Origin: an uncultured Alphaproteobacteria bacterium
GTDB lineage: Bacteria > Pseudomonadota > Alphaproteobacteria > Rhizobiales > Aestuariivirgaceae
Reading direction: 5' to 3'
Assembly: GCA_963850355.1 (NCBI GenBank)
Contig: CAWKKP010000003.1
Location: 394,660-458,659 of the forward strand
DNA length: 64,000 bases
Shown: positions 43,511-54,406 of the stretch, piece after piece
How positions within the stretch are numbered: the first letter of the stretch is position 1
Layout: every line of letters begins with the position of its first letter
The notes under the pieces: model-generated
What the model saw: the letters and a program-made list of their open reading frames with translations, nothing else
Told to the model about the DNA's origin: nothing
Database searches by the model: none
Program-made: the position numbers and the translations under genes

Positions 43511-43942
43511 TCAGCTTTTCTTGGATCGCATCCAAATCAAAAGTGCGAGAACTGTTGCAACGCCAGCAACACTCCACACAAAGGGATGTGCATAAAACTT
43601 CGTCGCAGCCAACATTGCCTTTCCGGAAGTTGTGTTCGGATCAGGTGGTTTCAGGAAAAACACGCCATAAAGATGCGCCGCTGCAATCGACACAACGAGC
43701 ACAATGCAAAACACCATGGCCACCACCATGGCGATCGTAATGACGGAACGCGTTTGCACACCAGGTTGTGCCAAAGGCAAAAGATTATTGATCAAACCCG
43801 CAAGTACCACAAGAATGGCACCCAATGAAAACAGGCCGATGCTGAAGGGTTGAAAAATCAGGATCAACGCCACAATGCCAAGACCGATGATTGAATACTC
43901 CATGCGCCGTGCGCCCACATTGCTCAATGCACCATTGCTCAT
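43511..43942 (-). CDS. Small integral membrane protein of unknown function
   Basis: 143 aa with ~4 hydrophobic segments; ATGA overlap with the upstream ATPase stop. Confidence 0.78.
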   Translation of the reverse strand: MSNGALSNVGARRMEYSIIGLGIVALILIFQPFSIGLFSLGAILVVLAGLINNLLPLAQPGVQTRSVITIAMVVAMVFCIVLVVSIAAAHLYGVFFLKPPDPNTTSGKAMLAATKFYAHPFVWSVAGVATVLALLIWMRSKKS

Positions 43943-45027
43943 GCGCGCACCGCCTTTCCATCTTGCCCAAAGACATGAGTTTGCGAGGGGTCTAGCTTGA
44001 GCGTCAACGCCTCACCCGTTTTCACCTTTTTCTCACGCGCCACTACAACACGAATGTCATTGCCCTGTTTTGTGCGCGCGTGAATGAGGGTTTCGGCCCC
44101 CATGGGTTCAATCAATTCCGCAACGGCTGAAATTGTATCGGAACCTTTTACTGAAACCGGAATAAACGCGCGCGGACGAATGCCGATGGTAATTTTTCCA
44201 CGCTCCAATTTGCCAACTGCTGGGTTAGCTGCGAGTTTGATTTGTTGATCGCCCAATCGTAAATCTGCAACGCCACTGTTGTAAGCGCTGAAGTCTGCTT
44301 CAACCAAATTCATTTGCGGTGTGCCAATAAAGCTGGCCACAAACACATTGGCAGGTTTTGCAAACACTTCATGTGGCGAGCCAACTTGTTCAATCAATCC
44401 ATCGCGCATGATGGCGATGCGATCTGCCATCGTCAGCGCCTCGAGCTGATCGTGTGTTACGATCACCGTAGCCTTCGACAGATTAGACAGCACCTGTTTG
44501 ATTTGTCCACGCATGGAATGCCGCAACTCTACATCGAGACGCGACAGTGGTTCATCGAACAGAAAGCAATTGGGATCGCGCACAATCGCACGCGCAACGG
44601 CAACACGTTGCTTTTCGCCCTCGGACACTTGCCCGGGCAAACGGCCTAACACGTCCTTGAGATGCAGAATGTCAGCGACTTTGTTGACTCGCGCTTCGAC
44701 CTCTGCTGCTCCAAGTTTTTCATAGTGCAGAGGCATGGCAATGTTTTCGCCAACGGTTAGCGCGGGATAGAGCGCATAGAATTGGAACACCATGGCGATG
44801 TCTCGTTTTTCAGGCGGCAGCGCATTCATGTTATGACCACCAATGATCACTTCACCTGACGTCGCGCGTTCAAGTCCTGCGATCATCCGCAGTGTGGTTG
44901 TTTTGCCGCAGCCTGATGGCCCGAGCAGGCATACGACTTCGCCAGCATTCACCGACAAATCAGCATCGCGCACGGCGGTAAACTCACCGAATTTCTTTGT
45001 GATCTTTTTGATTTCGATTGTCGACAT
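43939..45027 (-). CDS. Sugar ABC transporter ATP-binding protein (degenerate signature)
   Basis: GPSGCGKT, LFDEP and VTHDQ are canonical, but the signature reads VSEGE. Confidence 0.93.
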   Translation of the reverse strand: MSTIEIKKITKKFGEFTAVRDADLSVNAGEVVCLLGPSGCGKTTTLRMIAGLERATSGEVIIGGHNMNALPPEKRDIAMVFQFYALYPALTVGENIAMPLHYEKLGAAEVEARVNKVADILHLKDVLGRLPGQVSEGEKQRVAVARAIVRDPNCFLFDEPLSRLDVELRHSMRGQIKQVLSNLSKATVIVTHDQLEALTMADRIAIMRDGLIEQVGSPHEVFAKPANVFVASFIGTPQMNLVEADFSAYNSGVADLRLGDQQIKLAANPAVGKLERGKITIGIRPRAFIPVSVKGSDTISAVAELIEPMGAETLIHARTKQGNDIRVVVAREKKVKTGEALTLKLDPSQTHVFGQDGKAVRA

Positions 45028-45028
45028 G

Positions 45029-45973
45029 TCAGCGCTTTACCGTTCCGAATGTAACGCCGCGCAGCAATTGGTCCTGCAGGAAGAACGTCACGAAAAACAC
45101 CGGGATCAAAAACAGCGTTTCGATGGCTGCAAGCAATCCCCACAACACACCAATACCACCACCACCCACAGCCTGACTCATGCCCACAGGTACGGTGCGC
45201 GTATCAACGCCTGTGAGGAGGAGGGCGAACAGAAACTCGTTCCACGTGAGAATAAGTCCGAACACAAATGTTGCTGCAAGGCCCGCCAAGACTTGAGGCA
45301 GACAAATTTTAAAGAAGACTTTGATGTCAGATGAACCATCAATGCGTGCAGCATCTTCAACATCCAATGAAAGTTCATCAAAGAAACTCTTCATCATCCA
45401 GATCGTGAATGGTAAATTGAATGCGGTGTAAAGCAGAATAATGCCGATGTATGATCCCGATAGACCTGTCACCCGGAACATCAAGATGACAGGAATGATC
45501 ACAACGATGGCAGGTAACATGCGCGTTGTCAGGATGATAAAGAGATAAGTGTCATTGCCTTTTAAGGGATAACGCGAAAAGCCAAAAGCCGCGAGTGTGC
45601 CGATGACGAGAGCCAGAAAAACCGACACGCCTGCAATCACAAGAGAATTGAAAAAATACTTTGCAAAGCCAGTATTCTCAACCACGCCACCCGATGTCAT
45701 GGCACGTGAAAACACCGATGTGTAATTTTCCAGTGTCGGCGTGAAGGTAAGATGTTCAGGGATCAATCCAAAGAACGTAGTGGGGAAGAACTTAGGCGGA
45801 ATGGCCAGCGCTTCAGTCTGAACTTTGAAGCTGGTGATGATGATCAACAGAACGGGCAAAAAGTAAATCAAGCTGATGACACCAGCAAACAGAGTCTGCC
45901 CCCAGCCAGCTTCGCTCACGCCAGAGGCTTTGCGAAAGCCAAGCTTTTCCCAGAGGGATGAAGACGCAGCCAT
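45029..45973 (-). CDS. Carbohydrate ABC transporter permease (MalG-like)
   Basis: EDAARIDG EAA loop, WNEFLFA and TM helices. Confidence 0.92.
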   Translation of the reverse strand: MAASSSLWEKLGFRKASGVSEAGWGQTLFAGVISLIYFLPVLLIIITSFKVQTEALAIPPKFFPTTFFGLIPEHLTFTPTLENYTSVFSRAMTSGGVVENTGFAKYFFNSLVIAGVSVFLALVIGTLAAFGFSRYPLKGNDTYLFIILTTRMLPAIVVIIPVILMFRVTGLSGSYIGIILLYTAFNLPFTIWMMKSFFDELSLDVEDAARIDGSSDIKVFFKICLPQVLAGLAATFVFGLILTWNEFLFALLLTGVDTRTVPVGMSQAVGGGGIGVLWGLLAAIETLFLIPVFFVTFFLQDQLLRGVTFGTVKR

Positions 45974-47037
45974 CAGTTTGCTCCTTCGCTGCGCCGATTG
46001 GCGATGTAGAGGTAAAGATTGGTGAGCACGATCACAATGAACAGCATGACGTAGGATATTGCAGCGCTTTCGCTGGTTTTGTTTTGCTCACTGGCAAGAC
46101 GTTGGAGATGATAGGCAATGGTCATCGTATCATTGCCGCCCTTGGTGAGCAGCTGCACCATGTCGGAAAGTTTAAACGCTTCAATGGTGCGGAACAATAG
46201 TGCGAGCATGAGAAGGCTGCGGATATAGGGGAACGTGATGCTCCAAAACCGACGCCAACTTGAAACCCGGTCGATGGCAGCTGCTTCATAAAGATATTTC
46301 GGCACCGACACGAGACCAGCAAGCACGAGCAGCATGACGAAGGGCGACCACATCCACGCGTCAGCAAACACGATACCCGCAACGGCACCGGCCTTATTGT
46401 CCATCAAGATAAACTGTTGGTCAGTGAAAAGACGAATAAAATAACTGAGCAATCCAAATGTGGGATCGTAATAGTATGAAAAGAACACACCCGCAGCGAC
46501 AACCGACAGCATCATCGGTGTCAGCACGAGAATAAGAAGATACTTGCGCAACGGAAACTGTTTGGAGAACAGCAACGCCAGCAGAAATCCAACAATCATT
46601 TGAGCTGCAACCGTCAGCACCACGAACATTGCTGTGTTGACAAGGTTGGCCCAGTTCTCAGGTGCCTTCAAATCATCGGTCAACACTTTGGTGTAATTGG
46701 TAAGACCAACAAAGCGAATGGTCTGCTGGTTGGATTGATAGGCGAAGAAAGAAAGGCCCAAAGACCAGAGCAACGGAAAGATGTTCATCACAAACAAAAC
46801 CGCAATAGCGGGAGCGACCAAGAGGCCACCATAATTATGCCTGCGAAAGGCGTTGACGGTGATAGCTGCAGCAACAAGTGCGGCCATGGCACCCACTGTC
46901 CAAAAGGAAGCAGCAGCGGGGAGTGTTGCAATAGCAACGGCTGAAACAACGAGCCCTGCCAAAATGGCGAGCTTCCAGTTGTCGGGCCGCAGCGTGAAAA
47001 GACTTTGCGTTGGTGCGATGTCGAGTGTTGCGGTCAT
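45973..47037 (-). CDS. Carbohydrate ABC transporter permease (MalF-like)
   Basis: EAAAIDR EAA loop, WMWSPF and RTIEAFK. Confidence 0.92.
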   Translation of the reverse strand: MTATLDIAPTQSLFTLRPDNWKLAILAGLVVSAVAIATLPAAASFWTVGAMAALVAAAITVNAFRRHNYGGLLVAPAIAVLFVMNIFPLLWSLGLSFFAYQSNQQTIRFVGLTNYTKVLTDDLKAPENWANLVNTAMFVVLTVAAQMIVGFLLALLFSKQFPLRKYLLILVLTPMMLSVVAAGVFFSYYYDPTFGLLSYFIRLFTDQQFILMDNKAGAVAGIVFADAWMWSPFVMLLVLAGLVSVPKYLYEAAAIDRVSSWRRFWSITFPYIRSLLMLALLFRTIEAFKLSDMVQLLTKGGNDTMTIAYHLQRLASEQNKTSESAAISYVMLFIVIVLTNLYLYIANRRSEGAN

Positions 47038-47120
47038 GCGACGGTAAAATGCCTAAAGATGAAATGTTCCCCGACGTTGCCGAAGTGCGCGGGGAATTCG
47101 ACGACAATTTGAGTGACGAA

Positions 47121-47154
47121 CAAATGTGCGCAGCACGATCACTGCGCACATTTG
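47121..47154. terminator. Perfect 13-bp hairpin downstream of the SBP gene
   Basis: CAAATGTGCGCAG-N8-CTGCGCACATTTG; a second TTCCCCG..CGGGGAA stem lies at ~47067-47097. Confidence 0.65.
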
Positions 47155-47162
47155 CAAGAGTG

Positions 47163-48596
47163 TTACTTGATCAATCCAGCTTCCGTCAGCAAGTTCTGTT
47201 GGAACTTGGCAACATTGTCCAAAGTGGTCTTGGCGTCTTGTTTGCCGGTGATGGCAAGGTCGAACTGGTCTTGCTGTTGCGTCAGCAGTTCAAAGAACTG
47301 TGGCACGTGCCACACGTCTTTTTGCCAATCCAGCGAGGCCGCCCAAGCGCGGTTCCAAGGACGATACGTCACATACTTTGGATCGGTAAACACCGACTTC
47401 ATGGCAGACTGACCACCTGATGCAGCAAACTGATGCTGAATTTCAGGCGACAACCACCACTTCACGAAGCCCATGGCTTCGGTCAGCTGTTCTGGTGTGG
47501 TCCATGTGGTGAGCACGAATGGCTGACCACCGATGTTGGACCAACGCACCATCTTGCCATCAGCACCCATTGTGCCGGGAGCCATGCCGAACACCAACTT
47601 GTCAGAGACTTTTGACGTCTTCGGATCAAGCGAGGCTTCGCCAAGACCAATCCAGTCAATGTTCATGGCAACTTTGCCTTCACGGAACAATTCGTCTGAC
47701 TTGAAAATGTCCATCGTGCCGGTTTTTGCCACAGGCGGCATCAGATCAATGAAGCTCAAGTAGCTTTCCAAAGCCTTCACTGCTTCTGGTGAGTTCACAA
47801 CGCCTTCAGCTTGTCCTGTTGGTTGCTTGGTTTCATCCCACGTGCCACCACCCATTTGCCAAATGAAGCCGTTGATCTGCATCGACGAGAAGTCGTAGCC
47901 TTTACCGGCTTGGAATGCGATGCCGTAGAAATCATCATCGGCAGGTTTGCCTGCAAGCATTTCACCTTTTTTGCGTTTGAAGAAAACGCCAACATTCTTG
48001 AAGTCGTCCCAAGTCATGGCGTCAAGTTCTTCGCCCGTGCAGGGAAGCTTCTTGCTGAACTTTGCCATGAAGGCTTTCTGTTCGTCTTCATTGCAAAGAA
48101 TGTCAGAGCGGCCAAAATTCACCAAAACGTCGGGGAATTGTGGGAAGCCATAATAGTTCGGCGTCGAGTTTGGATAGGTCGAATAGGCATTCAGCGGCGC
48201 TGGATGCATATCAGCCATGGTCTTTTGCAATTCAGGATCGGCATCAATCAAGTCGTTCACTTTGCGGAAATAACCACCTTCAACAAAGGCACCCAACCAT
48301 TGCGAATCCGAAACGGCGAAATTGTATTTCTGTTCGCCCGATGTCAGCGATGCGTTGACGCGCGTATAGAAATCTGGCCATGGAATGAAATCGACTTCGA
48401 GTTTAACGGTGTTGCCGGTTTTCGATTTGTACTGCTCGTCGAACATCTTTTTCATGATGCGCGTTGGTGGCCAATCCGGCACAGCCATTGTCAATGTCAC
48501 TTCGCCAGCAAACGCGTTCAGCGCGCCGCCAACGGTCAGCGATGCAGCAAAGGCAATCCCCGCCACAATGCTTTTGGTTTTTGTCATATAGCTCAT
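47163..48596 (-). CDS. Sugar ABC transporter substrate-binding protein
   Basis: ATG 48596 with GGAGG RBS; signal peptide MSYMTKTKSIVAGIAFAASL..AFA; family 1 SBP features. The ORF-track start at 48788 overlaps the ATPase and is over-called. Confidence 0.9.
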   Translation of the reverse strand: MSYMTKTKSIVAGIAFAASLTVGGALNAFAGEVTLTMAVPDWPPTRIMKKMFDEQYKSKTGNTVKLEVDFIPWPDFYTRVNASLTSGEQKYNFAVSDSQWLGAFVEGGYFRKVNDLIDADPELQKTMADMHPAPLNAYSTYPNSTPNYYGFPQFPDVLVNFGRSDILCNEDEQKAFMAKFSKKLPCTGEELDAMTWDDFKNVGVFFKRKKGEMLAGKPADDDFYGIAFQAGKGYDFSSMQINGFIWQMGGGTWDETKQPTGQAEGVVNSPEAVKALESYLSFIDLMPPVAKTGTMDIFKSDELFREGKVAMNIDWIGLGEASLDPKTSKVSDKLVFGMAPGTMGADGKMVRWSNIGGQPFVLTTWTTPEQLTEAMGFVKWWLSPEIQHQFAASGGQSAMKSVFTDPKYVTYRPWNRAWAASLDWQKDVWHVPQFFELLTQQQDQFDLAITGKQDAKTTLDNVAKFQQNLLTEAGLIK

Positions 48597-48645
48597 ACTC
48601 TGTTTCCTCCATTGATGAACTGTATTTGCTTCCTGCCGCTGTTCG

Positions 48646-49731
48646 TCATGTGAGAGCCTGACCATTTGCAGCATTGAAGATGTGGAACTTTTTGGGATCA
48701 ATATAAATGTCAGCCATTTGGCCGGGTTGAATGGCAAGCGCGCTGCTTTCCGGCACCACCATGCGTAATGTTTCGCCTGCAGCTTCAACAGAGATCACGG
48801 TGATATCGCCCAGTGGCTCCAGCATTTGTACGCGAGACTTGGTTGCAGCTTCGCCTTTTTGGGCAAAGCGAATATCACTGGGCCGGATGCCAAGGAATGC
48901 CGCTTCGCCAGTTTGAACAGATTTCAGTTTCGCTTTCGGCACTATGGTACCGAGTGACGTCTCAAACGCGCCCTTGTTGGCTTTGGCCTTGATCATATTC
49001 ATGTGCGGCGAACCAATTTTTCCGGCCACATAAATATCGCTCGGGTTTTCATAAAGCTCGTCCGGCGTGCCCTGTTGGACAACAGCCCCATCCCGCATGA
49101 CGGCAATTTCTTCACCCATCGACAATGCTTCAAGCTCGTCAGGTGTTGCATAAACAATCGTCATGCCAAACTGGCGGTGTAAGCGTTTCAACTCGGCGCG
49201 CATGTCGTGGCGGAGTTTCGCATCAAGATTTGTCAGAGGTTCATCAAGCAGCAGAATTTTAGGACGGCGGATGAGCGAGCGACCCAAAGCCACGCGTTGT
49301 TGTTCACCACCTGATAAGGTGCTGGGCTTGCGTTCTAACCTTGGCAGAAGCTTTAGCATGGTGGCGGTTTCTTTCACCCGCTTGTCGATGTCTTCACGCG
49401 CTACACCTTCTTCGCGCAAAGGATAGGCGAAATTCTCATAGACGGTGAGATGCGGATAAAGCGCAAAAGACTGAAACACCATCGACACCCCGCGACCCGC
49501 GATAGGTGCCGCCGTGTGGTCTTGTCCAAATATATCAACGCGGCCAACATCGGGGCGCACCAATCCTGCAATTGTTCTTAAGGTCGTGGTTTTGCCAACA
49601 GAGCTTGGTCCAAACAGCACGAAGAAGCGGCCATCAGCAACTTCGAAGGAGAGGTTCTCAAGTGCGCGCACCGAACCATAGGATTTGGAAACCCCTGATA
49701 ATCGTAACGCTGGTGTCGTCGCTTCAGACAT
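48646..49731 (-). CDS. Sugar ABC transporter ATP-binding protein (degenerate Walker A and H-loop)
   Basis: GPSSVGKT, LSGGEQQR and LLDEP, with H-switch YATPD; ATG 49731 with GAGG RBS. Confidence 0.92.
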   Translation of the reverse strand: MSEATTPALRLSGVSKSYGSVRALENLSFEVADGRFFVLFGPSSVGKTTTLRTIAGLVRPDVGRVDIFGQDHTAAPIAGRGVSMVFQSFALYPHLTVYENFAYPLREEGVAREDIDKRVKETATMLKLLPRLERKPSTLSGGEQQRVALGRSLIRRPKILLLDEPLTNLDAKLRHDMRAELKRLHRQFGMTIVYATPDELEALSMGEEIAVMRDGAVVQQGTPDELYENPSDIYVAGKIGSPHMNMIKAKANKGAFETSLGTIVPKAKLKSVQTGEAAFLGIRPSDIRFAQKGEAATKSRVQMLEPLGDITVISVEAAGETLRMVVPESSALAIQPGQMADIYIDPKKFHIFNAANGQALT

Positions 49732-49803
49732 CAAACCATCCTCGATGCAACTGGAAGCAATTGAGACTAACCCGCCGTTTGAAACATGCAAGCCCTGAGT
49801 TGA

Positions 49804-50943
49804 TCACTTTGCGGTCTCCCATTTTCCGGAGGCAGCAGATTTCAGAACCGCATCTGTCACCAGATCTGTTGCCAATGCATCACGGAAGGTTGGGGCAGCG
49901 GCTTTGCCCGTTTCAAGCCCTTCGATAAAGTCGGCGGCTTGGTGCACAAAACTGTGTTCGTATCCGATTTGCAAACCCGGCACCCACCACTTGGACATAT
50001 AGGGATGATCGCCGTCTGTGACGTGAATAGAGCGCCAACCGCGCGTTCGGCCTTCATCCCGGTGATCGAAATATTGCAAGCGGTGCAGATCGTGAAGGTC
50101 CCATTGGATCGAGGCCTTCTCACCATTGATCTCCAAAGTGTAGAGCGCTTTGTGACCACGGGCGTAGCGCGTAGCTTCAAAATTTGCGAGTGAACCATTG
50201 TCAAAGCGCGCCAAAAACAAACTGGCGTCGTCGATGCCCACTTTTTCTAATTTGCCTGTAAGGGTGTGCTCTCGTTCCTTGATAAACGTTTCTGTCATGC
50301 CGATGACGGTGTTGATGCCGCCGTTGAGCCACATGGCTGTATCAATGCAATGGGCCAGCAAGTCGCCAGTCACACCGCTGCCAGCAACATTCACATCAAG
50401 CCGCCAAAGGCCTTGGCCACCTTGGGGCAAGTCTGCTGAAATTGTCCAATCCTGTAGAAACTTGGCACGATAGTGAAAAATCTTGCCGAGCTTTCCCTCA
50501 TCAATAAATTGTTTGGCAAGCGTAACAGCTGGAATACGCCGATAGTTATACCAGACCATGTTGGCGACTTTGGCTGCCTCAACGGCCTTCACCATTGCGG
50601 CTGATTCCTTGGCATTGCGACCAAGCGGTTTTTCACACATCACCATCTTGCCAGCAGCTGCGGCAGCCATCGCAATGTCCATATGCATGTCGTTCGATGC
50701 GGCAATATCAATAACGTCGATGTCTTTGCGCTCGACAAGTTTGCGCCAATCAGTTTCCGTTAACTCATAGCCCCACTGATCAGCGAAGGCTTTGAGTTTG
50801 CCTGCATCGCGGGCGCAGGCCGCTTTCAAAACAGGTTTGTGTTGCAGATCAAAAAAATGTCCTGCTTGTGAAAACGCATTGGAATGTGCACGACCCATGA
50901 AGCCATAGCCGACCATGCCAATGTTAAGAGGTTTCTTGCTCAT
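49804..50943 (-). CDS. Gfo/Idh/MocA family oxidoreductase
   Basis: [22 protein letters not shown] and GYEHSF; ATG 50943 overlaps the upstream stop. Confidence 0.92.
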
Positions 50944-51995
50944 CACGCTTGCCAACCGTGTTTGTCGCGCACCTTGATCATGGCCGCGAGAATGTCGTTC
51001 CAAGTTTTCTGTTGCAGCATCACATCATTGGGGAACATGCAGCCATCCCAGCAAATATGGCGGAAGGCTTTGGTCAGTGCGCCGTCGCGATCGCGCAACC
51101 AATAGCCAGCATGCTTCGGCACATCGAGTTTACCGTTCTTATCGGTGATCATGCAGTGCTTACCAGTCTTGTCATGATAGCCAAGACCCTTCACCGTGCC
51201 GTCGTTCTGTGCGACATGGAAGTCAATTGTCCACGGTCGCAGCGCATCGGTCATTTTCTTCAATGCTTCGTCGAGAGTTTTCTTGCTCTTCCAATCAAAC
51301 TTGGCAGGAAGCAGACGCGACTTTGGCGCGTTGTAACCCATCGTATATAAAAGCGTGTGCGCCATATCGGCTTGGAAACCAATGGTCTGCGGGCGATCCG
51401 TTTCTTCAAGGGTGTTGATCATATCGCGCCAAGAATGCATGCCGCCCCAGCAAATTTCACCTTCAGCTGCGAGGCGTTCGCCATAGTCAGAGGCCACGCT
51501 GCATGCTTCGCGGAAAGTTTTTGCGATCTTTTTTGTATTGCCAACAGGGTCTTTGGCCCAATCGGCAGGACCAGCAGCCGAGTCAATGCGAACAACGCCA
51601 TAGTGCCTAACTCCGAGATCGCGCAATCGCTTGCCGAGCTTGCAAGACTTTTCAACATTGGCCACGAACTTCTTGCGATCAGCTAGCGACCCCATTGCCG
51701 ATCCCCCGCCGACGGGCGGCCAAACGGGGGCCACGATTGAGCCGATGTTTAAGTTTTTCGCACGCACCTTGTCGGCAAGCCGTTTCACTTCATCATCTGT
51801 GAAATCAAGATTGGTGTGGGGTGCAACATGGAAAATGTCGATGCCGTCAAACTTGACACCGTCGACGCTGGCATTGGCTGTGAGGTCTATCAAAGTGTCG
51901 AGTGCAATGCCCGGTTCCGATTCTGATCCCTTGCCCACAAGTCCGGGCCACATTGCGTTATGGAGTTTGGGATAGTTGTTTTTCCCGGCCATCAT
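50943..51995 (-). CDS. Xylose isomerase-like TIM barrel protein (sugar phosphate isomerase/epimerase superfamily)
   Basis: [41 protein letters not shown] and HICWDG acidic/His metal-ligand pattern. Confidence 0.8.
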
Positions 51996-52077: not shown

Positions 52078-52771
52078 ATGCAAAAACTACTCCGCGAAAC
52101 CCGGCTTGATCGTAAAGCGCCGCTTGCGAGAGCAAATTTACACCTTGATTAGAAGCCTGATTTTAACAGGGAAAATCGGCCCCAGCGAAGTCATTGACGA
52201 GAAAGAAATTGCTTCACTCCTGAAGATTTCACGAACGCCCGTGCGCGAAGCCGTGAAAAAACTGAGTGACGAACACCTTGTCGACGTTGTCGCGCAATCG
52301 GGTACGCGCGCGTCTCGCATTGACCGCCATGAAGTGGAGCAAGCCTTCTTGATTCGCCGCGCATTGGAAATGGAAATCGCGGGACTGGCGGCCCTTCGCA
52401 TGTCGCAAATTCATGTCGATGCTTTGTCGGACATATTGATTGCTCACGCACGAGCCATTGAACGCAAAGACTTTATTGAGGCCATTGCCATTGACGATCG
52501 GTTTCACCGCACAATTGCTGAGATCAGCAATATGCCACGCCTGTGGCGTGCAATTGAAATTTCAAAAGCCCAACTTGACCGTTGCCGTTACATGATGCTG
52601 CCGCGCTCAGGCGAAGCTGAAGCAACACTTGAACAACATCGTGAAATCATCCGTGCATTGAACAGTAGAGATCCTGAACGCGCAAGACTTGCCATGGGTT
52701 CTCATCTTGAAAAGGCATATAGCAATGCGGCCAAAGTGCTTGATGCCGAATTGAAGAAGACCGGCAACTAA
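52078..52771 (+). CDS. GntR/FadR-family regulator with FCD domain (1-base insertion near 52125)
   Basis: ISRTPVREA wHTH, DDRFH and EQHREI; ATG 52078 gives MQKLLRETRLDRKAPLREQIY after removing one T. Confidence 0.9.
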
Positions 52772-54406
52772 CCTCGACTGGCCAAGCCTTCAAACAGCAT
52801 CGCAACGGCCTCGGCACCGGGATCGGTCACTCCATTCAAGTTTGACTCTGAAACGTAACTCGAGCGACCAGCACGGGCGCGTTTCATCTTTGCAGTCGCA
52901 TCAGCACCTTTGCGAGCGGCGCGTGCGGCATCCTCCACGATTCCGCCACGAGACAATACAGTCGAGGGCAGGCACCAAGGCATCAAGCATCGTGCGGTCG
53001 CCGGGCTTTGCCCCACCATAGGCCATCATCTTTTCAAGGCCAGCGTGCAACGCATTCTGCCATGACTGCCCCGAAGCGGCGGCTTGGCCTGCAGCCGTGA
53101 ACATGATGGCCATTAACACGCCGCTCGAACCACCCATGCTGCGCATGAAGCTGGCGCTGGCTGACGAAAAGAATGCATCAAGTCTGGCCAATGGCAATTT
53201 ATGAAGGTTGGCTTTCAAGTGCCGTGCTGCTGTTGCAATGGTTGATCCTGTATCCCCATCGCCGACTTTGGCATCGAGTGCATTCAGTTTTTGTTCCGCT
53301 CCAAGCAGAATATCGCAACTGCTTCCAACCAATGCAGCCAAAGCATCGTTTTTGCTGGCTCGTACCGGTTTCACTTTCATCGCGCGCGGCAGTTTTACCA
53401 ATTTCGGTTGCACGTGTGTGTGCATGCCTGGCCACACCAATGGGGCTGCAGGTGATTTGAGCGCAACTTCAAAGTCAGGTGTCAATGGCAACAGGCTCAA
53501 TGAAAAGCCGTGCATATCCAGCGAAGTCACAAGTGCTGCAGGTCCACACACAAGTTTGATCTTTTTGCCGTGGCGACTTTTCAAAACCTCATTCGCCAAT
53601 AAATTCATTTCGAGCGGCGTAGCAGAACCAAGATTGTTGATCATTAAGGCATAGCTGCGGGCAGGTTTCACTTTCTTAAACAGGCGATCAGTGACGAGAG
53701 CGACGGAGTGTTGCGCACCTTGGAATGTGACCAAATCCGCGCCCGGTTCTCCGTGAATGCCAAGTCCCAGTTCGGCTTTGCCATCGGGTATGCGGTCTTC
53801 ACGGCCAATGCCGGGCAAGGTGCAAGACGTCAACGCAATGCCCAATGAAACCAGCCCGTCTGCGGCGCGCTGAGCGATATGAGCGACCTTTTTGAGCGGC
53901 CAACCCTTGGCCGCATAATGGCCGGCGATCTTTTCAACAAACAACACACCTGCAATGCCGCGTGGTTGTTCAATCCCTGGAATTGCGATGTCTTCTTTCA
54001 CGATAATAATTTCGACCTGCTTGCCAAGGGCACGCGCGCGTTCCGCCGCAAGACCAAAGTTCAAGCGATCGCCAGTGTAGTTTTTGAAAATCAACAAGCA
54101 GCCACCCTTGCCAGTCACAGACATAATGGCTGCAAACACGGCATCCACACTTGGGGAGGCAAAAACTTCACCGCATACAGCGGCCGTCAAAAGTCCCGGA
54201 CCCACAAACCCTGCATGGGCTGGCTCGTGTCCAGAACCCCCGCCAGCCACAAGGGCCACGTGTTTGGCATTATGATCGGTGCGCAAGATCACTTTGATGC
54301 CGGGATAGCCATCAAGCCGCGCCAAATTTGCACCACCAGACGATCGCAACAGCCCATCCAGCGCGTCAACGACGAGTTTTTCCTTGCTGTTGATGAATTG
54401 CGCCAT
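52768..54406 (-). CDS. dhaK: Dihydroxyacetone kinase family, fused DhaK-DhaL (ATP-dependent) (1-base insertion near 52960)
   Basis: GGGSGHEPAHAG, KNYTGDRLNF, GIHGEPG, DGDTGST, MGGSSG, GDRTMLDAL and C-terminal AGRSSYV..DPGA in the adjacent frame; ~545 aa. Confidence 0.88.

Follow-up and report, generated by a model that had tools for sequence, protein, structure and literature searches.

Type I ABC importers are modeled on homodimeric motors with two equivalent ATP sites (MalK2, HisP2, MetN2), and how much ATP each imported substrate costs them remains a matter of debate. Degenerate ATP sites, by contrast, are a central theme of ABC exporter mechanism. Each ATP site of an ABC transporter is composed of the Walker A/B motifs and H-loop of one domain and the signature of the other, and several heterodimeric exporters, namely TM287/288, TmrAB, BmrCD, TAP1/2 and CFTR, combine one consensus site with one degenerate site (PMC7756269, PMC3971661). 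For exporters, one source names a missing Walker B catalytic Glu as a hallmark of the degenerate site (PMC7544095). For two CUT2-type importers with fused ATPases, RbsA and NupO, sequence analysis predicted that one ATP site is non-functional (PMC11466899), so a degenerate site in an importer has precedent. The CUT1 importers MalFGK2, UgpAEC2 and LpqY-SugABC (1G29, 1Q12, 2R6G, 7CAD) have a single ATPase gene and two identical consensus sites. A system with two ATPases is GlpSTPQUV, an ABC importer through which Rhizobium leguminosarum VF39 takes up glycerol (Ding et al. 2012, doi 10.1099/mic.0.057281-0, as cited in PMC7912956), and to which the Cupriavidus system Rmet_2229-2234 is related (PMC7912956). 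A literature search found no paper describing complementary ATP-site asymmetry for CUT1 importers.

The locus described here lies in a window of 64,000 nt, the whole stretch of DNA that was analyzed. Like GlpSTPQUV, it is CUT1-like and consists of six parts: a binding protein, two permeases, a small membrane protein and two MalK-like ATPases that differ from each other. These genes and two upstream neighbors are as follows.

50943-51995, minus strand: xylose-isomerase-like TIM barrel, upstream and co-directional, preceding the oxidoreductase gene
49804-50943, minus strand: Gfo/Idh/MocA oxidoreductase, upstream and co-directional; resembles levoglucosan dehydrogenase, below the family cut-off
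48646..49731, minus strand: ATPase A, 361 aa, ATG at 49731; intact ORF with ABC_tran and C-terminal OB_MalK and TOBE_2
49588..49611, minus strand: codons of the ATPase A Walker A motif GPSSVGKT, aa 41-48
49138..49152, minus strand: codons of the ATPase A H-loop YATPD, aa 194-198
47163..48596, minus strand: periplasmic substrate-binding protein, 477 aa, ATG at 48596; SBP_bac_1 and SBP_bac_8 matches
45973..47037, minus strand: permease 1, MalF/UgpA-like, 354 aa; BPD_transp_1
45029..45973, minus strand: permease 2, MalG/UgpE-like, 314 aa; BPD_transp_1, start overlapping the permease 1 stop
43939..45027, minus strand: ATPase B, 362 aa; intact ORF with OB_MalK and TOBE_2 domains
44614..44628, minus strand: codons of the ATPase B signature VSEGE, aa 134-138
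43511..43942, minus strand: small hydrophobic protein, 143 aa, probably an integral membrane protein; start overlapping the ATPase B stop by 4 nt

The last four transporter genes overlap or lie 1 nt apart. A GGAGGA ribosome-binding site precedes the ATG of the binding-protein gene at 48596, and its product begins with a signal-like segment; the longest ORF for this gene begins at 48788, but that start would overlap ATPase A. The small membrane protein matched no Pfam family. It is found in every complete orthologous locus, and its conserved FQP motif recurs in the small proteins from Labrenzia and the Bathyarchaeia-like contig.

With MalK/UgpC-type ATPases, two BPD_transp_1 permeases and a family-1 solute-binding protein, the system belongs among the CUT1-type (TC 3.A.1.1) type I importers. 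Both ATPases match PF00005, PF17912 and PF08402; among solved structures, MalK and other sugar ATPases are closest to them (E 2e-86 to 2e-74), and their best NCBIfam matches are UgpC and MalK, both below the equivalog cut-offs. The current annotation of both subunits is generic, either "sugar ABC transporter ATP-binding protein" or "UgpC". The domain architecture and the permease and binding-protein families are the same as in MalFGK2, UgpAEC2 and LpqY-SugABC, but the window encodes two different ATPases in place of one.

The two ATPases are 38% identical and deviate from the consensus in different motifs. A preliminary description of this DNA had reported that ATPase A has an altered Walker A motif (GPSSVGKT), no switch His in its H-loop (YATPD) and an intact LSGGE signature, and that ATPase B has an intact Walker A and H-loop together with the signature VSEGE. 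Both statements hold in the ORFs, and the first also in a phmmer alignment with Thermococcus litoralis MalK (1G29), where Ser44 of ATPase A takes the place of the second Walker A Gly and Pro197 that of the switch His in the MalK H-loop YVTHD. The Walker A change is a mild one because GPSSVGKT still fits the P-loop pattern GxxxxGK[ST], with only the fourth Gly, typical of ABC proteins, being lost; a standard GP[TPS]GAGKT is common among His-less relatives. ATPase A further has the Q-loop MVFQ, the signature at aa 139-143, the Walker B LLLDEP at aa 160-165 and the D-loop LTNLDA, and its Walker B catalytic Glu, Q-loop Gln, Walker A Lys/Thr and A-loop Tyr are all intact. ATPase B has the Walker A GPSGCGKT, the Walker B FLFDEP and the H-loop VTHD at aa 190-193. 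The other CUT1-type ATPases of the source genome have the Walker A GPSGCGK[ST] (GASGSGKT in one case), LSGGQ and VTHD.

What do these deviations mean for the motor? The six genes probably encode a CUT1-like type I importer for a sugar or polyol, driven by an obligate heterodimer of ATPases A and B with one consensus site and one degenerate site that would only bind ATP. The motif positions and the standard head-to-tail geometry of ABC dimers support the earlier proposal that all degenerate elements fall in one composite site. The consensus, hydrolytic site would combine the Walker A, Walker B and H-loop of ATPase B with the LSGGE signature of ATPase A, and the degenerate site would combine the Walker A GPSSVGKT, the Walker B and the His-less H-loop (Pro197) of ATPase A with the VSEGE signature of ATPase B. 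Only the A/B pairing gives one full consensus site, because a homodimer of either subunit would carry two defective sites. The degenerate site likely binds ATP-Mg, since ATPase A keeps the A-loop Tyr, Walker A Lys/Thr, Q-loop Gln and Walker B Asp-Glu, and in doing so it would most likely help to close or hold the dimer. It would hydrolyze ATP slowly or not at all, such that one ATP is presumably hydrolyzed per cycle. Some residual hydrolysis there is possible because 80 of 80 orthologs of ATPase A retain the Walker B catalytic Glu.

The same arrangement is familiar from the heterodimeric exporters, in which the deviant H-loop of one domain and the deviant signature of the other also meet in a single composite site, leaving the second site fully at consensus. 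The window system likewise has non-identical nucleotide-binding domains, with every deviation in one composite site and a second site that is fully consensus. The exporters, however, have a type IV fold and fused membrane domains, whereas the window encodes a binding-protein-dependent type I importer with separate ATPases that carry C-terminal regulatory domains. The catalytic Glu that is often lost from the degenerate sites of exporters is retained in the window-type ATPase A (LLLDEP). RbsA and NupO differ in other respects: their domains are fused, they are classed as type II importers, and their degenerate site lacks the Walker A Lys (PMC11466899), whereas the window system has separate MalK-type subunits, is type I and keeps the Lys.

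The motif pattern is highly conserved. Among orthologs of 72-83% identity, GPS[SA]xGKT, MVFQ, LSGGEQQR, LLLDEP and [YF]ATPD are found in all 80 copies of ATPase A, and GPSGCGKT, [VI]SEGE and VTHD in 53 of 54 copies of ATPase B; in the 54th ATPase B ORF, the motif patterns matched neither Walker A nor signature. Because the pattern is invariant at this level of identity, it is beyond what would be expected by chance. The ATPase A pattern also occurs in 120 of 120 database homologs. Co-conservation of YATPD and SEGE, suggested in the preliminary description as a check, was observed in 53 of 54 complete orthologous operons, and the gene order (ATPase A, binding protein, two permeases, ATPase B, small membrane protein) is the same in 54 of 54 complete loci.

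Is the window system a glycerol importer of the GlpSTPQUV type? The preliminary description had named two-ATPase glycerol importers as likely relatives, and this holds only in a loose sense, through the ATP sites: complementary asymmetry is present at glpSTPQUV-type loci in 20 of 20 Pseudomonadota genomes, and also in the source genome's own copy. GlpS has the Walker A G.T..GK[ST], LSGGQ and an H-loop without the switch His, YAT[TS]E; GlpT has the canonical Walker A G[PS]SGCGK[ST], VTHD and the signature L[TSA][AP]D. The two kinds of domain can even be fused, as in a database protein of 588 aa (P0123) in which a His-less domain of the GlpS kind is joined to a signature-degenerate domain of the GlpT kind. 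Nonetheless, the window system is not itself a member of the glpSTPQUV family, which is ruled out by the low identity of its components (31-38% for the ATPases, 27-28% for the permeases and 23% for the binding proteins), the lack of a DUF2160 protein (GlpU) and a different gene order. The small membrane protein of the window has no Pfam match and no BLASTP similarity to the DUF2160 protein of the source genome, and hhalign gave no signal between them with what were crude alignments. In the window, the two ATPase genes bracket those for the binding protein and the permeases, whereas glpS and glpT are side by side; the binding protein has 477 aa as opposed to about 575 aa for the GlpV type, the 23% figure being its identity to the GlpV-like protein of the source genome; the H-loop residue is Pro in ATPase A and Thr in GlpS; and the neighbors are Gfo/Idh/MocA and TIM-barrel genes rather than glpK and glpD. 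In a free tree, ATPase A groups with the ATPD-type clade and ATPase B with the partner clade, with GlpS and GlpT on long branches apart, which is still compatible with a common origin.

His-less ATPases of the ATPase A type form a large clade that reaches Archaea, Poribacteria and Aerophobetes. For six of six distant members that were looked up, a second ATPase is encoded nearby or in the same operon, and the partner signature is degenerate in five of these six pairs: LGEGE in Labrenzia, LDMGT in a Bathyarchaeia-like contig, LTVGE in archaeon HR01, LTADQ in Poribacteria and LTSGQ in Aerophobetes. The sixth, L135, has a partner that retains LSGGQ and branches with ordinary CUT1 ATPases; therefore, the signature change is not obligatory. 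In four of the distant systems (L132, L133, L135 and L136), the two ATPase genes are side by side, and two ATPase pairs stand together without permease genes in the stretch of DNA inspected. Across this deep divergence, the His-less subunits always keep LSGG[EQ] or ASGGE, and their partners always keep GPSG[CS]GK[ST] and VTHD while the signature drifts. Every His-less relative inspected retains the Walker B DEP. In the tree, the His-less clade of the ATPD type (21 rows, support 85/92) is sister (90/86) to the partner clade (9 rows, 91/88), and the subclades of both branch in the same order, which indicates that A- and B-type subunits arose by one old duplication and were then inherited jointly. 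As judged from this distribution of motifs, the ATP-site asymmetry is a family trait and not a local oddity.

There are other ways to read these sequences. Both ATP sites could be catalytically competent, with Pro for His and VSEGE tolerated, other residues standing in for the His, and two ATP used per cycle as in MalK2. The strict conservation of the catalytic Glu, Walker A Lys/Thr, Q-loop Gln and A-loop Tyr of ATPase A would fit this, as would a Walker A that is still a general P-loop and the intact partner signature of L135. Nevertheless, it is unlikely, because constraint over deep divergence is one-sided: the consensus is kept only in the B-type H-loop and the A-type signature, and the opposite elements drift. 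A partner signature that ranges over LDMGT, LTADQ and VSEGE would not be expected if both sites had to hydrolyze ATP. Moreover, MalK, HisP and HlyB become almost inactive as ATPases when the H-loop His is mutated, and substitutions of the signature Gly nearly abolish hydrolysis in the same proteins. About as improbable, at roughly one chance in eight, is the converse, a dead interface that does not bind nucleotide, with ATPase A in a structural or regulatory role in which it docks on one permease and supplies only its signature and C-terminal domain. The window's subclade and GlpS have indeed lost the fourth Walker A Gly, the Glu of VSEGE could repel the gamma-phosphate, and both subunits keep the OB_MalK and TOBE_2 regulatory domains. 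Without ATP binding, however, there would be little reason for the A-loop Tyr, Walker A Lys/Thr, Walker B Asp and Q-loop Gln to be invariant in the 80 orthologs and in distant His-less relatives.

The possibility that ATPases A and B are alternative motors, acting as separate homodimers or with one of them shared with other permeases, is very improbable. Multitask CUT1 ATPases do exist, with MsmX and MsiK being shared among permeases, and the two genes are separated within the operon, one toward each end. Against this stand the two defective sites of either homodimer, the retention of both genes in every one of the 54 complete loci and their adjacency in the four distant systems, the shared branching order of the A- and B-type clades, and the natural fusion of the two domains in the Glp-type branch. 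The obligate A/B heterodimer with one binding-only site thus remains the preferred reading.

A broader reading, held with only slightly better than even confidence, is that an ancient and large branch of MalK-type importers in Bacteria and Archaea, comprising the ATPD type and possibly GlpST, may have obligate heterodimeric motors with one non-hydrolytic site and use one ATP per cycle. This branch would have arisen by a single duplication followed by joint diversification, often with a small extra membrane subunit. If true, it would offer a natural, genetically tractable type I importer for measuring ATP-to-substrate stoichiometry and the role of the degenerate site; a widespread, conserved family with an asymmetric motor would make the question of ATP per substrate directly testable. 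Accessible members include the glycerol importer of rhizobia and Cupriavidus and the window-type systems of the culturable hosts Aestuariivirga litoralis, Dongia and Labrenzia. The asymmetry may also be relevant to how oligotrophs that import low-value substrates balance their energy, and it bears on the annotation of both ATPase subunits.

The TIM-barrel and Gfo/Idh/MocA genes probably encode catabolic enzymes that work together with the transporter. They are linked to it in most orthologous loci, Dongia being an exception. Because an oxidoreductase and a TIM-barrel enzyme are linked in this way, the locus suggests a sugar or polyol substrate that is oxidized and then isomerized. A similar pair of TIM-barrel and oxidoreductase genes adjoins the archaeal system in L131.

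What kind of transporter does the locus encode? The genes of interest form a single block of co-directional genes in the window (43511-51995, minus strand):

50943-51995, minus strand: xylose-isomerase-like TIM barrel
49804-50943, minus strand: Gfo/Idh/MocA oxidoreductase
48646-49731, minus strand: ATPase A
47163-48596, minus strand: binding protein (SBP_bac_1/8)
45973-47037, minus strand: permease 1 (BPD_transp_1)
45029-45973, minus strand: permease 2 (BPD_transp_1)
43939-45027, minus strand: ATPase B
43511-43942, minus strand: 143-aa membrane protein without a Pfam family, its start overlapping the ATPase B stop by 4 nt

From the TIM-barrel gene to the gene for the 143-aa protein, the intergenic gaps are -1, 72, 49, 125, -1, 1, and -4 nt; a short-chain dehydrogenase gene comes next, 34 nt further on, and then a rhamnose-mutarotase-like gene after another 13 nt. 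Both ATPases have ABC_tran, OB_MalK, and TOBE_2 domains. In NCBIfam, the ATPases match UgpC and MalK best and the permeases UgpA/UgpE/MalF/MalG, but none of these matches reaches its equivalog cut-off. Thus, judging from the domain and NCBIfam matches of its ATPases, permeases, and binding protein, the system is a CUT1-like type I importer. The host genome (3.15 Mb, 8 contigs) lies near Aestuariivirga, Hyphomicrobiales. The oxidoreductase is similar to levoglucosan dehydrogenase (E 1e-95), but its score of 321 bits falls short of the cut-off, 650. Divergent from the operon is a GntR/FCD-type regulator gene (52106-52771, plus strand), and beside it lies a fused dihydroxyacetone (glycerone) kinase gene (52901-54406, minus strand) whose score of 452 bits lies under the equivalog cut-off of 575.

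The two ATPases differ from the consensus in complementary ways, as the preliminary description had claimed.

Nucleotide-binding motifs of the two ATPases
Walker A: GPSSVGKT in ATPase A; GPSGCGKT in ATPase B
Q-loop: MVFQ in ATPase A; MVFQ in ATPase B
Signature: LSGGE in ATPase A; VSEGE in ATPase B
Walker B: LLLDEP in ATPase A; FLFDEP in ATPase B
D-loop: LTNLDA in ATPase A; LSRLDV in ATPase B
H-loop: YATPD in ATPase A; VTHD in ATPase B

In the alignment to MalK of T. litoralis (PDB 1G29, E 2e-86), the ATPase A segment 'tivyatpdeleals' stands opposite 'TTIYVTHDQVEAMT', and 'gpssvgktt' stands opposite 'GPSGCGKTT', so that Pro197 occupies the position of the switch His and Ser44 that of the second Walker A Gly. 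These changes need qualification. GPSSVGKT still matches the general P-loop, and ATPase A retains the catalytic Glu and all the residues needed for ATP-Mg binding.

The motif changes, whose absence from orthologues would have counted against the preliminary description, are conserved among orthologous loci. Scanning one genome per species by pattern turned up 398 relatives of ATPase A, from which the best 80 loci (71.7-83.1% identity) were kept. Their hosts are mostly Aestuariivirga and other Hyphomicrobiales, together with Dongiaceae, assemblies labelled Rhodobacterales and Rhodobiaceae, and one labelled Verrucomicrobiia. All 80 of these best ATPase A orthologues have GPS[SA]xGKT, MVFQSF, LSGGEQQR, [IV]LLLDEPLTNLDA, and [YF]ATPD, with the A-loop Tyr in every listed variant. 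For ATPase B, GPSGCGKT, [VI]SEGEKQR, FLFDEPLSRLDV, and VTHD are found in 53 of 54 loci; in the remaining ORF, the pattern search gave neither Walker A nor signature. Similarly, all 120 database homologues of ATPase A with at least 74% identity have GPS[SA]xGKT, LSGGEQQR, and [AS]TPD. The order ATPase A, binding protein, two permeases, ATPase B, small membrane protein is found in 54/54 loci long enough to show it, and TIM-barrel and Gfo genes lie upstream of ATPase A in most loci, not in Dongia. The operon labelled Verrucomicrobiia (L067, DATKFM010000055.1) is 72-79% identical to that of the window; this points to a recent transfer or a binning error, since its proteins nest within the alphaproteobacterial Dongia branch.

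His-less ATPases, in which the switch His of the H-loop is replaced, extend well beyond these orthologues. A search with ATPase A against 1.84 billion representative proteins uncovered many further MalK-like ATPases with [AVST]T[PTA]D instead of THD, and a profile built from ten of these brought up members in Bathyarchaeia, Thaumarchaeota, Poribacteria, Aerophobetes, and Alphaproteobacteria. In all six genomic contexts fetched for distant His-less ATPases, a second ATPase is encoded alongside or in the same operon.

Distant His-less ATPases and the signatures of their partners
L131, Bathyarchaeia-like sediment contig: GPTGAGKT, LSGGE, ATPD; partner LDMGT
L132, archaeon HR01: FSTPD; partner LTVGE
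L133, Poribacteria: ATPD; partner LTADQ
L134, Labrenzia: GPSASGKT, ASGGE, ATPD; partner LGEGE
L135, NCBI assembly: TTPD; partner LSGGQ (intact)
L136, Aerophobetes: ATPD; partner LTSGQ

All six partners retain a canonical Walker A and VTHD. The Labrenzia locus has the gene order of the window, and its small membrane protein shares the FQP motif. In L131, a 94-aa membrane protein sits between the two ATPases, and TIM-barrel and Gfo genes adjoin (L131:2313-10689); the link between this transporter type, a xylose-isomerase-like TIM barrel, and Gfo/Idh/MocA seen at 49804-51995 in the window thus recurs there. Six Gfo/Idh/MocA genes lie around the HR01 locus. The fetched stretches of L133 and L136 contain the two ATPase genes together but no permease genes, which argues that the pair is the functional unit. 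The exception is L135 (L135:6880-9104), where a His-less ATPase (YTTPD, GPSGAGKT) accompanies an intact-LSGGQ partner that branches among ordinary CUT1 ATPases; either the H-loop was lost before the signature decayed, or a replacement partner was acquired.

How did the pairs arise? In a careful maximum-likelihood tree of 68 nucleotide-binding domains, the ATPD-type His-less clade, which includes ATPase A (21 rows, support 85/92), is sister to the partner clade (9 rows, 91/88), with joint support of 90/86. The groupings (L133, L136) and (L131, (L134, window group)) branch in identical order in both clades, while L132 is basal among the partners only. Sister clades with matching branching order point to a single old duplication followed by joint inheritance of the two paralogues. 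The L135 partner, which alone has an intact signature, groups with ordinary CUT1 ATPases and, from this placement, looks like a replacement.

What would this asymmetry mean for ATP hydrolysis? In the head-to-tail dimers of ABC ATPases, one domain contributes Walker A/B, Q-loop, and H-loop to a given site and the other contributes the signature (PMC7756269, PMC3971661). An ATPase A homodimer would have two His-less sites and an ATPase B homodimer two sites with a bad signature. Only the A-B heterodimer would have one full consensus site, made up of Walker A/B and H-loop from ATPase B and LSGGE from ATPase A. Alternative homodimers seem unlikely. Across a divergence that takes in both Bacteria and Archaea, consensus is kept in the signature of the His-less subunit and in its partner's Walker A and H-loop, and the opposite elements are lost or drifting; this one-sided constraint is the strongest comparative evidence for the heterodimer reading. 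The proposal in the preliminary description of a heterodimer with one degenerate site is therefore supported at the level of sequence by motif conservation and one-sided constraint, and we consider an A-B heterodimer with one impaired ATP site probable.

The main alternatives concern the degenerate site, which would combine the Walker A and H-loop of ATPase A with the signature of ATPase B. This site could have lost ATP binding altogether, or, at the other extreme, both sites could be active. Since ATPase A keeps its nucleotide-binding residues as well as the catalytic Glu, binding with slow or no hydrolysis is favored over either. A heterodimer with a site of this kind would hydrolyze one ATP per cycle.

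A similar asymmetry is found in a known type of glycerol importer. An ABC ATPase scan of the window's genome found exactly one His-less ATPase besides ATPase A, in a second two-ATPase system outside the window (G000:C8:492156-499863). This system consists of an FGGY kinase, a GlpS-like ATPase (GPTLSGKT, LSGGQ, YATTE), a GlpT-like ATPase (GPSGCGKT, signature LTADL, VTHD), two permeases, a DUF2160 protein (E 5e-35), and a 574-aa binding protein, an arrangement that corresponds to glpSTPQUV of Rhizobium leguminosarum (Ding et al. 2012, cited in PMC7912956). Its ATPases show the same complementary asymmetry as the window's pair. Indeed, the pattern holds in all 20 DUF2160 loci fetched from different Pseudomonadota families: GlpS has G.T..GK[ST] (with the fourth Gly in only one), LSGGQQQR, and YAT[TS]E in 20/20, and GlpT has Walker A G[PS]SGCGK[ST], VTHD, and signature L[TSA][AP]D in 20/20. 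GlpS and GlpT have very long branches (1.76 and 1.58) and fall outside the ATPD-type and partner clades in the free tree. AU tests rejected neither a constraint uniting all His-less subunits, ATPD-type and GlpS (p 0.52), nor one uniting all degenerate-signature partners (p 0.62); the constrained trees score slightly better than the free tree, with long branches involved. The two types may go back to a common origin or may be a product of convergence. The window system itself was rejected as a glpSTPQUV member: it has no DUF2160 protein, low identities, and a different gene order and neighbors.

Degenerate ATP sites are well described in ABC exporters (PMC7756269, PMC3971661, PMC7544095), and have been inferred from sequence in the fused importer ATPases RbsA and NupO (PMC11466899). 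We found no description of the asymmetry of GlpS/GlpT or other two-ATPase CUT1 systems in the open-access full-text literature, where papers naming glpS and glpT treat both simply as ATP-binding proteins; an earlier account is possible. The window locus belongs to a class of type I importers with asymmetric motors that is large, conserved, and apparently undescribed, and the value lies in the class more than in this single locus.

The 143-aa membrane protein (43511-43942) is present in 54/54 complete orthologous loci, and its FQP-containing first hydrophobic segment is shared with the 101-aa Labrenzia protein and the 94-aa L131 protein. Comparison with DUF2160 by hmmscan, BLASTP, or hhalign on rough alignments gave no signal, although very remote homology is possible. 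By analogy, it may be an extra subunit comparable to DUF2160, without detectable relationship.

Other arrangements of paired ATPases were also seen. One glpSTPQUV-type locus (L120, G099:C1:1364000-1380300) carries, before its single GlpT, two tandem GlpS-like genes: one encodes GGIKAGKT and YATTN, the other GRTLAGKT and YATTE. In three long database proteins (P0272, P0303, P0318), the end of one ATPase gene seems to be joined to the gene that follows; these do not look like true fusions and were left out of the evidence. P0123 (588 aa), from the representative search, joins a GlpS-like domain (GPMRAGKT, LSGGQ, YATTD) to a GlpT-like domain (GPSGCGKT, signature LATDV, VTHD) and then a TOBE domain in one polypeptide; this fusion, if real, supports the two subunits working as a pair. 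P0271 (644 aa, from a 22-kb ENA contig) is a fused MalK-like pair whose first domain has the signature LSSGD and whose second resembles the His-less clade (GPTGAGKT, LSGGEMQR) yet keeps VTHD; its motifs suggest that it may be an intermediate state.
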